From Chitinophagaceae bacterium (GTDB lineage: Bacteria; Bacteroidota; Bacteroidia; Chitinophagales; Chitinophagaceae), in the NCBI GenBank assembly GCA_014379965.1, contig JACMKU010000062.1, positions 19,878 to 83,877 on the forward strand: a DNA stretch of 64,000 bases, in the 5' to 3' direction. Below the pieces are notes generated by a model that did no database searches, had not been told where the DNA came from, and saw only the letters and a program-made list of their open reading frames with translations. The position numbers and the translations under genes are program-made. Position 1 is the first letter of the stretch; the number at the start of each line of letters is the position of its first letter. Of this stretch, positions 38,701-43,992 are shown one piece after another.

Positions 38701-41700
38701 TCATTCTATTTTAAGGAGGACCAGGAGCGCAAGATGTGGGAGATTATCAAGATTGTTGGGTTTATGGCGTTGTCTGTTGCAGCGATGCTTGCACCAGGCG
38801 TAGGTGGACTTATACTCAAGGCGATCGATGTCGCAGTTGGTCTCGGCATGGGTGTAAAAGGAGTTATTGATGCAAAGGAGGTGGTTCGGATGGCCAAGAT
38901 GGATATTCATGGCAATATCAGAGGCATTAGTGTAGAGGATGCTGAAAAAGCACTTAAGCACGCTTGGATGGGTTTGCTATTCACCGTTGCTCTTACGGTA
39001 GGTCCAACTGCGATTTCTGCTGGTTTACGCGTAAGAGGTTCGCGAGGTCTGTTATTGAGTGCAGAAGTGAGGACATGGGAGCGAGCCGTGTCTGCGGAGA
39101 CTCGAGCATTCTTGAAAAATAACCGTTCGGTAAGGCAAATGTATTCTGAGATGCGTGGAGACTTACGGAGACTGCTAACGCATTGCTCGAATCTATGTGT
39201 AATACCAGGTATTACAAGAGTACAGGTCGCCGAAATAAGACAGATGATCGACAGGCTGGGAGGTCTAACTCCTGACACATTAGCGGCGCTCCGCACGCTT
39301 TTCTATGTGGCGAAGGACGATGTAGTATGGCTTTCTGGGATGATGAAACATATTAAAAAACAGGAAGACATTTCGAAGGTGCTACGAATGGGCTTTAGAA
39401 GAAGAGCGATGGTGCCACCCGGAACGATTCCGCTAGCGAGTGCAAAAGTGCCAAGAAATACTCCTGGAACGGCTGTAGGTGGAGAACAATTACCGAGAAT
39501 AGGTAACGGAGATGAATGGTTGCGTCCTACTGGCGGCAAGTCTGCATTAGTGCCCCGTCATATAGCAGATCGACTGAGAAACCAAAAATTCGCAACATTT
39601 GACGATATGAGGGCGGCGTTTTGGCGAGAAGTTGCGAATGACCCGATTCTCTCAAAAGGTTTTAATAAGAGTAATCGTACACTGATGAGCATGGGTAAGG
39701 CTCCGAAGGCAATGCGTGGAGAACAGTTTAAAGGTGTCAATACATATGAATTGCACCATATCAAACCCGTCGAACATGGTGGTGCTGTATACGACATGGA
39801 TAACCTCGCGGTATTCAGCCCGCGCTATCATAAGGTTGTACATGATTATGGCGATCCAACGATCTATGCACCTAAACTGGAGCCTGGGTACCATCCAGTA
39901 TCTATCATTCAAAAAGCGGATTTAAAGGATGGATCGTCGATAATCGTTCAGCGTTCAGAAAACGACTATAGCAATTTAGATTCGATTCGAGATTGTCAAG
40001 AGTGTGAGCGTGAAAAAGAAATTAAGGCTGAGATGCCCAATAAGGAACACACTATCCAACGACTCCCAGAAATTACCTCAACATCTTTTGGAAAAATACA
40101 GAGGGAATCTAATTCCGGTTGGATACCTCCGCCAGCCGACAATAGTCCAGCAACACTGGAATATAAGTGGCACGATCGAGTCAATGAAAATATCATATCA
40201 GCGGATAAAATATACCAGGCATTTCATGGCTCCATGTTCAGTGAAGAAGAAGGTGACGCACTTGATGAATTGAATGAGGTTGGTAAAAAATCCATCCATG
40301 CGGTTAGCGAAGTGAGAAGGCTGTATTATAATATTCACGGAACTCATATTGAAGTTGAGTTCCGCAACCTCGCTTCAACCGATGAATTAAAAAGGGCTCT
40401 TGTGGTCTTACAACCAGCCATGTCTTTGGTTGATAAGATCAATTTTTACGATGAAAGCTGGTCAGAGAACGAGGGCGCAATGCTGGATGAGATCAAGAAT
40501 GCCCCAGAAAACGACCTGGCTGAACTAAGAAAGAATGAACCCGCGCTCTCAAAACTCAAAGGTCAGCTCGAAGGGTTTCTTAGCTATGATGAGTATTACG
40601 AAGCGTGGAAACTCCTGGAGCCGAACAAACTCTATGAGCAAGTCAAATGGAGGGTCAAAAACTCTGACTCTGCAGATGATGATGAAGAAGCAGTATATAT
40701 GGCTGTCCTCGAGCTTCCAGCAATAGGAAGATCCAATCTTTGGAAGAACGAGCCTGGACTCTTTGATTTCCTCTCGGATTCAGAGAAGAAGTCGGTCGAA
40801 TTCATGTGCACGGAAACTAATACCGAGGCGGAAGTATTAAAGGAGGCGATGCGAATGGCGACCGAGGGCGCGGGAACTTACGACAAGATGCTAGCGGCAG
40901 TAGTAGCGAAGACAAAGGAAGCCGCTCAATTGCAAATGATGATGGAAGCTGAACTCCACGCGGCAAAGGTCGAACTGTTGGAAAGTGGAGAAATGGCAAA
41001 ACCTTCGCCAGATATTGTAAGGATAGAAGCTGAGCTTGCCCGCCTCGGAAACATCCAGGAAGAATTACTCACAGCCAAATTCTCGGGCTCTGAACTTGAC
41101 GAGAATACATTCCTCGGACAGGTTCGCGAGGACGTGGGAATGGAAGAATTTCAGGGTTTTGGCAAGGAGATGGGAGTAGGGGACAAAGACCTTGCTAAAA
41201 CTTCAATCCTTGAGGCGCCTGGGTTTTATGATGATGAAGACGCAATCATTAAAGCGTATGAAAGCATTAGCGACCCGGATCTTAAAGAAGAACTTGATAA
41301 GGATCCTGCAGTGATAGCCGCTGTAGATGACGCGATGTTTGATAGCGAAAAGACTACACTTAGCCACTTTAAGAATGAGAACTCTTATGAGATAGCACTG
41401 TACAAACTGGACAAGGCTTTTGACAAGATTGACACTGACGAAGTGGAGATCCTGCGTATAATCATAACCATGCCACCAGAAGACCGTAAGAAAGTGGTCG
41501 CTGAAAAACCGCCGATTTATTTAAAACTTATTTCTCCCATGTATATGGGCACTTCGGAAGTCCCTCTCATAAAAACGGCCTTCGAAACAGGTAAAGTGCC
41601 GGAATCACAGGCGTTCGATTATGCCACCTTCGGTCCGAACGATGAGGAATTAATTAAGATGCTCGGCGACACGAGTACGATGGAGGAAATGTTTGAATTC

Positions 41701-43992: not shown

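Follow-up and report, generated by a model that had tools for sequence, protein, structure and literature searches.

The cargo gene is found at positions 35752-43992 of the forward strand of the window, which is the whole stretch of DNA analysed (64 kb). It is a single open reading frame of 2746 amino acid residues, and the frame is unbroken over 8241 nucleotides. The gene sits inside the operon of an eCIS, a phage-tail-like injection machine, with the tape-measure gene on one side and a SUKH immunity gene on the other. The operon contains genes for Pvc16_N, the sheath, three tube proteins, a VgrG-like spike, gp25, the tape-measure protein (CIS_TMP), an AAA ATPase and a second eCIS_core protein. 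The sheath, tube, spike, gp25 and CIS_TMP genes are all located upstream of the cargo, and the AAA gene is found at 47420-49225. A small protein combining DUF4157 with an M35-like domain is encoded at 46025-47416. NTF2-like ORFs are found at 45072-46007 and 49322-49717. The gene order tape-measure, cargo, ParA-like, eCIS_core, AAA recurs in two other loci, L001 and L002.

The encoded protein belongs to the polymorphic cargo toxins of the DUF4157 (eCIS_core or 'PVC-metallopeptidase') class, of which it is a concatenated form with two warheads, encoded within its own eCIS operon. It contains PF13699 with the HExxHxxQ motif, the operon includes a CDC48-like AAA+ ATPase, and the toxin carried on the conserved N-terminal region is variable: the relatives of body A end in Tox-SHH and not in a DNase, and other domains are found at the C-terminus of those of body B. 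The general plan resembles that of the eCIS_core polymorphic toxins (Zhang et al. 2012, PMC3482391; Geller et al.), which have an N-terminal leader, a DUF4157 domain with HExxH, a 'linker' of more than 1000 residues and a variable C-terminal toxin, and whose gene in the eCIS operon is located between those of the tape-measure protein and the AAA ATPase. As in the case of Cgo1, a second DUF4157 protein is also encoded, which is small and has a C-terminus resembling a metalloprotease. However, the protein differs from known eCIS_core toxins in having two toxin units per chain, the DUF4157 of the second deleted, and in a long linker that resolves into a body, a TM-like module and a Cys-motif domain, parts undescribed in the literature consulted.

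The features are collected in Table 1. Unit 1 consists of the leader with DUF4157/eCIS_core, body A, hydrophobic module A, a Cys-motif domain and a colicin-type DNase. In unit 2 the leader remnant is followed by body B, hydrophobic module B, a second Cys-motif domain and a Tox-SHH nuclease. The sequence-only reading of this DNA had described two repeated, complete units; every element that it placed along the gene was recovered there when mapped to protein residues, and the order of parts is as it described, but unit 2 is incomplete, the DUF4157 core being absent.

Table 1. Features of the cargo protein and of the gene that follows it (positions in the window; KD, Kyte-Doolittle value).
Feature	Residues	Positions	Strand	Description
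Unit 1 leader	1-238	35752-36465	+	Acidic, low hydrophobicity; five CxxCE and five [ILV]QR motifs; mean KD -1.21
DUF4157/eCIS_core (PVC-metallopeptidase)	239-337	36466-36762	+	Pfam PF13699 at residues 248-325, E 3.6e-29; AHEITHTIQQ, then IQRE
Body A	338-984	36763-38703	+	Helical, unit 1-specific; colinear with P0002, P0003 and P0004 at 37-51% identity
Hydrophobic module A	985-1093	38704-39030	+	TM-like helices with conserved GVGG...GMGV motif; KD of 19-mers up to 2.02
Cys-motif domain, copy 1	1097-1228	39040-39435	+	W-E..ETR..EM..VRR.LT.C...C.IP...RL...LR.(Y/L)(F/L)(H/Y)
Colicin/pyocin E-type HNH DNase	1244-1367	39481-39852	+	Pfam Col-Pyo_DNase at residues 1254-1364, E 2.3e-34; ELHH...N...H..H intact
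Inter-unit leader remnant	1397-1453	39940-40110	+	IVQR, CQECEREKE, EHTIQR, IQRE; BLAST against residues 190-231, E 0.004
Body B	1460-2119	40129-42108	+	Helical, annexin-like repeats, unit 2-specific; colinear with P0005, P0006, P0008, P0015 and P0265
Hydrophobic module B	2120-2343	42109-42780	+	A single strong TM-like helix (IASTVAAIVVALVVIAVTG, KD 2.57) followed by amphipathic segments rich in Ala/Gly; ends in GGGGGMLTGG
Cys-motif domain, copy 2	2449-2580	43096-43491	+	Homologous to copy 1
Tox-SHH HNH/EndoVII nuclease region and stop codon	2581-2746	43492-43992	+	PF15652 at residues 2618-2717, E 1.5e-9; FFQSHHG
SUKH-1 (SMI1/KNR4) immunity gene		44002-44439	+	Pfam PF09346, E 1.7e-8; starts 10 nt past the cargo stop codon

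The leader of unit 1 is presumed to be the loading sequence. Disorder-promoting residues make up 60% of it, a value that reflects composition only. All nine [ILV]QR and all six CxxCE motifs of the cargo are confined to residues 71-337 and 1399-1452. For [ILV]QR, shuffling gave an expected number of 0.83 per whole protein and a maximum of five in 2000 shuffles, compared with the nine observed. The leader-like features noticed earlier just after the DNase, CQECEREKE and three [ILV]QR motifs, are present in the inter-unit segment, and the leader features are non-random. This segment is what remains of another leader and DUF4157, from which the core has been deleted and "EHTIQR...IQRE" left. The role of DUF4157 itself has been termed 'mysterious' or 'elusive' in the literature. 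In AlgoCIS, the N-terminal domain is required for loading while DUF4157 is dispensable. The toxicity of Cgo1 was unchanged by HExxH mutations in DUF4157, and loading persisted after deletion of DUF4157. These results keep the processing role put forward by Zhang et al. 2012 (PMC3482391) at the level of a hypothesis.

The DNase of unit 1, recognized already from the sequence, is confirmed by Pfam and is a bona fide member of the group of colicin E2/E7/E9 and S-type pyocin DNases, with the HNH motif intact. Comparison with the colicin E9/E7 DNase by Foldseek gave 44-45% identity, TM 0.89 and an rmsd of 1.9 Å, and the metal-finger motif HH...N...H is present as ELHHIKPVEHGGAVYDMDNLAVFSPRYHKVVH. 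The C-terminal region of about 220 residues, previously left unassigned, can be assigned to Tox-SHH, an HNH/EndoVII nuclease, with a score of 38.9 bits against a gathering cut-off of 22.7 and with the [SG]HH signature present. Imm-SUKH is among the immunity types given for Tox-SHH by Zhang et al. 2012 (PMC3482391), and a SUKH gene is also next after the SHH-ending homologue P0002. For the DNase, no Im-type immunity gene was found in the window: the Pfam scan of small ORFs gave no PF01320-type ORF, and tblastn of Im9 and two Bacteroidota Im-like ORFs across the 64 kb gave a best E of only 0.25. The Pfam scan of the downstream ORF in L001 returned no DNase immunity family. An intact colicin-type DNase with no such gene within 64 kb does not fit well with a weapon that is purely antibacterial and spares protected kin.

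Between the leaders and the toxins are the two bodies and the two hydrophobic modules. Body A had no match in the Pfam scan. With Annexin (PF00191), body B reaches at best 21.6 bits, where the cut-off is 25 (E 2.4e-4 for the isolated body), and its relative P0005 reaches 24.5 bits; DUF4157-annexin-toxin proteins have been noted earlier (PMC3894181). Hydrophobicity was assessed in Kyte-Doolittle windows. In the stretch 38734-39030 (residues 995-1093) of module A, the residues G, A, V, I and L account for 54% of the total as opposed to 35% protein-wide. This stretch had been called Gly-zipper-like. Its hydrophobic character is real, but a strict glycine zipper is absent and only a single GxxxG-type element, GLGMG, is found. 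Several glycine-zipper motifs occur in module B, where the Ala/Gly/Val-rich stretch seen earlier at 42154-42780 corresponds to residues 2135-2343 and includes the hydrophobicity maximum of the module. The AF2 model of module A consists of three long helices with pLDDT of 40-70, which do not pack into a confident globule. Module A is conserved in P0002, P0003, P0004, P0126, P0134, P0145 and P0167, and module B in P0005, P0006, P0008, P0015, P0144 and P0265.

Each toxin domain is preceded by a Cys motif, located in LRRLLTHCSNLCVIPGITR... (residues 1142-1170) in copy 1 and in VRRIMTWCNTPCIPDNITP... (residues 2494-2523) in copy 2. The two regions had been proposed to align as linkers, and they do so far beyond chance: BLASTP of residues 1082-1169 against 2432-2521 gave 29% identity over 90 columns with E of 1.8e-9, and an HMM seeded on either copy retrieves the other at E of about 1e-30. 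However, the term linker, in the sense of a short connection, has to be given up. The AF2 model contains eight helices with pLDDT of 91.5 and pTM of 0.80, and the region is confidently predicted to be a folded eight-helix domain of about 125 residues with an invariant C-x3-4-C loop. The two Cys residues are invariant in 42 sequences of the domain. The domain was found in at least 279 cluster representatives (profile match with E≤1e-3), at a median distance of 208 residues from the C-terminus, and has no relatives in Pfam, PDB or BFVD. The word-indexed search with the two copies alone gave no match, but the exhaustive profile search did find relatives. Genome contigs searched with a single sequence of linker and DNase returned pyocin-like DNase domains only, the majority of them from Pseudomonas; none of the matches was related to the linker.

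The toxins identified downstream of the Cys-motif domain all act on nucleic acids: SHH (17), colicin DNase (9), deaminases (2), EndoU (1) and LHH (1). The N-terminal half of the domain tracks the type of body, while the C-terminal half tracks the type of toxin. In copy 2 the C-terminal half is closest, at 51-58%, to the copies ahead of Tox-SHH in P0007 and P0009, and the cassette of linker and SHH is recurrent at the C-terminus of many relatives. Judged by these comparisons, the Cys-motif domain is the junction where toxin cassettes are exchanged. The autoproteolysis suggested earlier for the Cys motif finds no support, since HINT, Rhs-DPxG, VENN and CPD-type motifs are absent and the AF2 model places the Cys motif in a short loop, within a helical domain that is well packed.

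The origin of the two-unit chain can be considered from its relatives. Body A with module A (residues 309-1153) is colinear with the single-unit cargos P0002, P0003 and P0004, which end in Tox-SHH, while body B with module B (residues approximately 1500-2450) is colinear at 28-34% identity with the single-unit proteins listed for body B in Table 1. Homologues with the units as separate genes, which the sequence-only reading had proposed to look for, thus exist for both. Since each body has its own single-unit relatives, the chain is a fusion of two cargo types and not a duplication, two different cargo genes of one unit each having been joined in frame. Of the two origins named before, fusion or duplication, only the former holds. 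An internal tandem duplication of one effector unit with later divergence would account for the same order of parts in both units and for the homologous pre-toxin domains, but it is scarcely credible in view of the hhalign probabilities of 0.3% between the bodies and 2.7% between the hydrophobic modules. The Cys-motif domains and the leader motifs are the only parts common to both units, and even the two linker copies are nearer to copies in other proteins than to each other. It is also very improbable that the long ORF is an artefact, with adjacent cargo genes merged by an error of sequencing or assembly, or that unit 2 is made from an internal start. The leader-like motifs do open unit 2 as they would a separate gene, and the exact protein is absent from the records in an exact-sequence look-up. 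However, the frame is continuous over the whole gene, the junction has neither an intergenic gap nor a start codon, and the same junction occurs in P0010, P0121, P0134 and P0155 on independent contigs from other samples; in the junctions that were read, CxxCE/QR motifs come after the toxin without a change of frame. In these four a full second DUF4157 is retained, and P0121 consists of the unit DUF4157-body-linker-SHH twice. Such junctions indicate that tandem units are a habit of the family. Two or more DUF4157 domains are present in 80 of the 120 best homologues, so that the architecture, although undescribed in the literature consulted on eCIS cargo as had been supposed, is not rare. The word-indexed search with unit 2 only returned P0265 alone, the Ala-rich words having probably swamped the selection of candidates.

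The hydrophobic modules and the Cys-motif domains are closely associated. A TM-like segment is located within 450 residues upstream of the Cys-motif domain in 104 of 113 copies, and in the same proteins the density of TM-like windows is 3.9% in these 450 residues compared with 0.12% elsewhere. The presence of the segment is also associated with the class of toxin. Among 45 related proteins, with the class set by Pfam domains anywhere in the chain, 24 of the 26 homologues whose toxin acts on nucleic acids have a TM-like segment within 900 residues of the C-terminus; for those that carry peptidoglycan/periplasm-type domains the number is 3 of 19 (Fisher p 1.9e-7). With relatives collapsed to clusters the values are 13 of 15 and 0 of 6 (p 5e-4). 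The earlier proposal that each unit has its own membrane-insertion segment and pre-toxin linker is therefore correct as regards the presence and pairing of both elements, while insertion as such is a role that we infer.

The best explanation of these observations, to which we give a probability of about 60%, is a two-warhead fusion cargo with the following putative mechanism of loading, cleavage and membrane entry. The presumably disordered N-terminal leader would guide the whole chain in unfolded form to the tube lumen through the AAA+ ATPase of the operon, so that a single loading signal could deliver two nucleases. After injection into the bacterial envelope, the chain may be cleaved in the leader-like segment between the units, close to the pre-toxin domains, or at both places; candidates for the protease are DUF4157 itself, the small DUF4157 and M35-like protein, or a protease of the target. 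Each hydrophobic module would then insert in the target cytoplasmic membrane and, together with the Cys domain, could act as an entry device carrying its nuclease across this membrane to the cytoplasm. The part of the Cys domain in entry is proposed solely from its position and its association. The SUKH protein would make the producer or its kin immune to the SHH nuclease. A more general reading, which we offer only tentatively, is that the TM-like module and the Cys-motif helical domain form an unrecognised, self-contained 'cytoplasm-entry cassette': antibacterial eCIS would release their cargo outside the cytoplasmic membrane, each nuclease would have to cross it alone, and the cassettes could be strung behind one loading signal.

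Two other functions of these parts have to be weighed. The Cys-motif domain might be a mere structural adaptor or recombination handle for cassette swaps, or a processing site, with no part in membrane entry. This is suggested by its two halves, which follow body and toxin as those of a swap junction would, by the proposal that polymorphic toxins are processed at their pre-toxin domains (Zhang et al. 2012, PMC3482391), and by the lack of a fold relation to known entry domains. A swap junction alone, however, leaves unexplained both a confidently folded 125-residue domain with invariant Cys, Trp and Thr in at least 279 clusters and the near-obligate pairing with an upstream TM-like module, and we consider it unlikely that this is the whole role of the domain. 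The roles of swap junction and entry are mutually compatible. More doubtful still is that the hydrophobic modules are toxins themselves, pore-forming or ionophoric, each unit then consisting of a membrane-damaging element and a nuclease. A match to the SseC translocator/pore family occurs in the module region of 2 of 60 linker-bearing relatives, the two-helix pore-forming Tox-WTIP is among the PVC-type toxins of Zhang et al. 2012 (PMC3482391), ionophoric toxins are used by CDI systems (PMC11630599), and the long helices of the AF2 model are unpacked. Yet the modules are always located upstream of a separate enzymatic toxin, and their selective association with cytoplasm-acting toxins argues against such a role, because an independent pore would be indifferent to the target of its neighbour.

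It is useful to compare the proposed entry device with known systems. The entry domains of CdiA-CT are all-alpha, contain a conserved functional disulfide and are found upstream of nucleases (PMC9424206). The Cys-motif domain resembles them in being all-alpha, about 100-130 residues long, with a Cys pair, directly N-terminal to a polymorphic nuclease and at a cassette boundary. However, the VENN motif is absent from the cargo, the C-x3-4-C pair is located in a loop while Cys55 and Cys65 of CdiA-CT bridge two helices, and the TM-like module upstream has no counterpart in CdiA-CTs. Homology to a CdiA entry domain such as 6VEK was considered and rejected: Foldseek against the PDB gave a best E of 1.4 with none below 1, and the profile search of PDB sequences was negative. 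Transmembrane domains of T6SS effectors have been implicated in crossing target membranes (PMC7773334). The prePAAR effectors (PMC7773334) likewise combine TM helices with a cytoplasm-acting toxin in a contractile-injection effector, and the helices are proposed to aid in crossing the inner membrane. In contrast to these, the present cargo has no prePAAR or PAAR, no Eag chaperone was found among the ORFs scanned against Pfam, the TM module is internal and just upstream of each toxin and not N-terminal, and delivery would be from the tube lumen instead of the spike tip.

As in nuclease colicins, the cytotoxic domain belongs to a multi-domain protein and must cross the inner membrane. Unlike in colicins and pyocins, there is no Im-type gene nearby, receptor-binding and translocation domains are absent, and the DNase is internal and not C-terminal. 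Several toxic domains in one polypeptide, presumably separated after delivery, are known also from MARTX and the 'polytoxins' of Zhang et al. 2012 (PMC3482391). However, neither a CPD cysteine protease nor MARTX repeats were detected here with Pfam and NCBIfam, each warhead would have a complete entry cassette of its own, and the units derive from independent cargo genes.

The region of more than 1000 residues between DUF4157 and the toxin has been termed a 'very long linker' in the literature. In this cargo and its relatives it divides into a family-specific body, a TM-like module and, where toxins are swapped, a conserved and confidently folded domain with the Cys motif. The presence of the TM-like module follows that of toxins whose site of action is the cytoplasm, which provides a testable hypothesis for the compartment of delivery and for the crossing of the inner membrane by eCIS toxins. 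The Cys-motif family could serve as a marker in searches for toxins and for the boundaries of cassettes, and the presence of several warheads behind one presumed loading signal is relevant to the engineering of eCIS as delivery vehicles. If the reading of an entry cassette is true, eCIS would follow a two-step delivery logic akin to that of CDI and colicins, and the cassette would be a portable module for the engineering of cytoplasmic delivery.

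The giant ORF is located within an extracellular contractile injection system (eCIS) operon, as assigned from the domains of the neighbouring genes (see table). The giant protein belongs to the known DUF4157/'PVC-metallopeptidase' polymorphic toxin class and contains three Pfam domains in all. Its C-terminal domain, left unassigned in the sequence-only reading, is matched by Pfam as Tox-SHH above the gathering score, and the protein thus ends in a second HNH-superfamily nuclease. Both nucleases come from known toxin families, and their catalytic signatures, read from the sequence, are intact. 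A model of the DNase superimposes on the colicin E9/E7 DNase with a TM score of 0.89 and 44-45% identity.

Features of the eCIS region and domains of the giant cargo protein
Feature	Position	Strand	Remarks
GerE/LuxR-type regulator	11209-11787	-	directly upstream of eCIS operon
Pvc16_N, sheath, three tube proteins, VgrG-like spike, gp25			eCIS operon genes, in that order
Very large ORF, 1536 aa	22886-27496	+	between gp25 and tape-measure gene
Very large ORF, 2217 aa	27508-34161	+	between gp25 and tape-measure gene
CIS tape-measure protein	34168-35712		upstream of giant ORF
Giant cargo ORF	35752-43992	+	single uninterrupted frame, 2746 aa
eCIS_core/DUF4157	aa 248-325 of giant protein		Pfam E 3.6e-29
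Colicin/pyocin DNase	aa 1254-1364 of giant protein		Pfam E 2.3e-34
Tox-SHH	aa 2618-2717 of giant protein		Pfam E 1.5e-9
SUKH-1 immunity-type gene	44002-44439		downstream of giant ORF
ParA/MinD-like P-loop ATPase	44465-45229	+	AAA_31, E 3.8e-50
DUF4440 (NTF2-like) + cupin ORF	45072-46007	+	near cargo genes
Small second eCIS_core protein, 463 aa	46025-47416	+	directly upstream of AAA ATPase; weak Aspzincin_M35-like C-terminus
AAA ATPase	47420-49225		last listed eCIS operon gene
SnoaL/NTF2-like ORF	49322-49717	+	near cargo genes
SMEK-domain + NACHT STAND NTPase, 1132 aa	51210-54608	+	just downstream of eCIS operon

The order tape-measure, giant cargo, ParA-like, small eCIS_core and AAA is repeated around two homologues on unrelated metagenome contigs, L001 and L002. 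The ParA/MinD-like ATPase lies between the giant cargo and small eCIS_core genes in all three loci (the window, L001 14584-15363 and L002 2967-3740). A regulator in this upstream position agrees with the link between GerE-domain regulators and eCIS loci that was reported by Geller et al. 2021. The 1536- and 2217-residue ORFs gave zero Pfam matches at E<=0.01 and are presumably baseplate or tail-fibre components; in L002 the same slot is filled by a protein of more than 2200 residues. In its size, its position and its predicted metalloprotease C-terminal domain, the small eCIS_core protein is like AlgoCIS Cgo1; it may be another cargo, or a protease that works in trans on the giant one. The NTPase downstream of the operon looks like a defence-type gene.

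The giant protein had been described as two complete, repeated effector units that arose by fusion or duplication. All coordinates in that description translate to the peptides quoted, and part of the repetition is real. The two linker regions align with each other (aa 1082-1169 and 2432-2521, 29% identity, E 1.8e-9), and an HMM seeded on either copy recovers the other at about 1e-30. Behind the DNase, leader features recur in a segment that aligns to aa 190-231 with E 0.004. All nine [ILV]QR motifs (0.83 expected per protein by shuffling) and all six CxxCE motifs are confined to aa 71-337 or 1399-1452. Apart from the linker and leader motifs, the two units are unrelated as far as profile-profile comparison can tell, with probabilities of 0.3% for the helical bodies A and B and 2.7% for the hydrophobic modules A and B. 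On these values, internal duplication is rejected as the origin. Each half also has its own single-unit relatives, so that fusion is retained and duplication is not. Body A with module A (aa 309-1153) is found at 37-51% identity in P0002, P0003 and P0004, proteins of 1531-1600 residues with DUF4157 at the start and Tox-SHH at the end. Body B with module B (aa ~1500-2450) is found at 28-34% identity in P0005, P0006, P0008 and P0015, which have DUF4157 at the start and other end domains, and at 32% in P0265, outside any visible eCIS locus.

P0265 (L021 5182-9363, 1393 aa) is encoded among metabolic genes, with no Pfam-detectable DUF4157 and no eCIS gene visible within 5-8 kb. This suggests that the module has a use beyond eCIS as well, or that a locus farther away makes use of it. 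The C-terminal end of P0006 (aa 1436-1528) has a weak RelA_SpoT-like region, in line with a report of alarmone-synthetase toxins associated with eCIS (PMC12691689). Body B (40129-42108) contains repeated segments resembling annexin repeats, for example KIDTDEVEILRIIITMPPEDRKKV, and the Pfam Annexin hit falls just short of the threshold. DUF4157-annexin-toxin proteins are already on record from bacteria (PMC3894181).

Concatenation of units is habitual in the family: two to four DUF4157 domains are present in 80 of the 120 best homologues, and P0121 consists of DUF4157, body, linker and SHH, twice over. In P0010, P0134 and P0155, the reading frame runs on from a linker and DNase cassette into a leader-like segment (with CxxCE motifs, QR motifs or both) and then into a complete second DUF4157. 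The inter-unit junction of the giant protein, CQECEREKEIKAEMPNK-EHTIQR...IQRE, has the same order with the DUF4157 core missing; nothing of that region remains but the end of the HExxHxxQQ helix and, normally downstream of the domain, the IQRE motif. Unit 2 is therefore a once-complete cargo unit that lost its peptidase-like domain by deletion following the fusion. The description as two complete units therefore holds for unit 1, which has its DUF4157, and not for unit 2. Among 264 proteins compared, an internal leader without DUF4157 occurs in one other protein (P0085), versus 20 with it. We put the probability of this architectural reading at about 0.9.

The supposed linker is in fact a domain of about 125 residues, as seen from the conservation in 42 aligned copies, in which both cysteines are invariant. 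Its consensus is W-E..L..ETR..L...P.LR..Y.EMDP.VRR.LT.C.SPCIP......RI..L..RL......LREYLH..R..L..A...L. and AlphaFold2 predicts it with confidence as eight helices, the fourth and fifth of which are separated by the Cys loop (mean pLDDT 91.5, pTM 0.80). No match was found in Pfam or NCBIfam, no relative in BFVD, and no fold or sequence relative in the PDB (best Foldseek E 1.4). An exhaustive profile search seeded with ten linker copies gave 279 cluster representatives at E<=1e-3 and 110 at E<=1e-10, with the domain usually ~200-260 residues before the C-terminus. DUF4157 is present in 79 of the best 150 such proteins, and many of the others are fragments. P0002/3, which share body A, match the N-terminal half of copy 1 at 48-49% identity and its C-terminal half at just 21-24%; this C-terminal half is 53% identical to P0010, which shares the DNase. 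Likewise, P0007/9, which share the SHH toxin, match the C-terminal half of copy 2 at 51-58% identity. Because the N-terminal half follows the body and the C-terminal halves follow the toxin, the domain behaves as a toxin-cassette junction. Among the toxins that could be recognised downstream of it in 60 relatives are 17 Tox-SHH, 9 colicin DNases, 2 deaminases, 1 EndoU and 1 LHH, and every one of them acts on nucleic acids. The suggested autoproteolysis at the Cys motif found no support.

The hydrophobic character claimed for the stretch in unit 1 is borne out. Module A has no strict glycine zipper. Kyte-Doolittle 19-mer maxima are 2.02 and 2.57 for modules A and B, and G+A+V+I+L make up 54-56% of them versus 35% overall. 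A TM-like 19-mer is found within 450 residues upstream of the Cys domain in 104 of 113 copies, where the density of such windows is 3.9%, as compared with 0.12% over the remainder of these proteins. The sequence-only reading had allowed that the hydrophobic stretches might be ordinary buried helices. In the AlphaFold2 model of aa 985-1372 the pLDDT is 80-89 for the Cys domain and exceeds 90 for the DNase, and module A forms three long helices of pLDDT 40-70 without confident globular packing; this prediction speaks against buried helices and is not proof of membrane insertion. In giant DUF4157 homologues, TM-like segments within 900 residues of the C-terminus accompany 24/26 nucleic-acid toxins and 3/19 peptidoglycan/periplasm-type domains (Fisher p 1.9e-7), or 13/15 and 0/6 when relatives are collapsed into clusters (5e-4).

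No Im-type immunity gene for the catalytically intact DNase (39481-39852) was found anywhere in the 64-kb window. In L004 and L006, related Bacteroidota DNase toxins are each followed by an Im-like ORF of 73-78 residues. The SHH nuclease is probably neutralised by the SUKH protein, since P0002, ending in Tox-SHH, likewise has a SUKH gene next downstream. However, SUKH is also given as an immunity type for ColE7-like toxins (Zhang et al., PMC3482391), and the partner of the single SUKH protein cannot be assigned with certainty. The two NTF2-like ORFs are candidates for unconventional immunity proteins, because an NTF2-type immunity family is listed by Zhang et al. 2012 (PMC3482391).

As eCIS cargo, DUF4157 proteins lie inside the lumen of the tube, as for AlgoCIS Cgo1/Cgo2 (PMC8894135). 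Loading needs a disordered N-terminal domain and DUF4157 is dispensable for it (bioRxiv 10.64898/2026.05.27.728243); DUF4157 has been proposed as a releasing peptidase (PMC3482391). Beside the architecture, fusion origin, cassette junction and module/toxin associations established here, a mechanism may be proposed, which we hold tentatively and at somewhat below even odds. The whole 2746-residue chain would be loaded by its single N-terminal leader. After firing into the bacterial envelope, the units would come apart at the leader-like spacer, close to the pre-toxin domains, or at both places. Each hydrophobic module would then enter the cytoplasmic membrane and, with the Cys domain, bring its own nuclease to the cytoplasm. 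The logic of this membrane-entry step, though not its ancestry, is like that of the transmembrane domains in T6SS prePAAR effectors (PMC7773334) and of the CdiA-CT cytoplasm-entry domains, which are all-alpha and carry a disulfide (PMC9424206).

We found no description, in the papers available to the search, of the tandem-unit organisation of eCIS cargo, the vestigial second leader, the Cys-motif pre-toxin domain, or the coupling of TM-like modules to cytoplasm-acting toxins; the region before the toxin is called only a 'very long linker' by Geller et al. The architecture had been thought undescribed for eCIS cargo, which agrees with this search. It is nevertheless under-described and not rare, because multi-DUF4157 proteins are abundant in databases. 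The giant protein supplies a concrete, testable hypothesis on the route of eCIS toxins to the cytoplasm.
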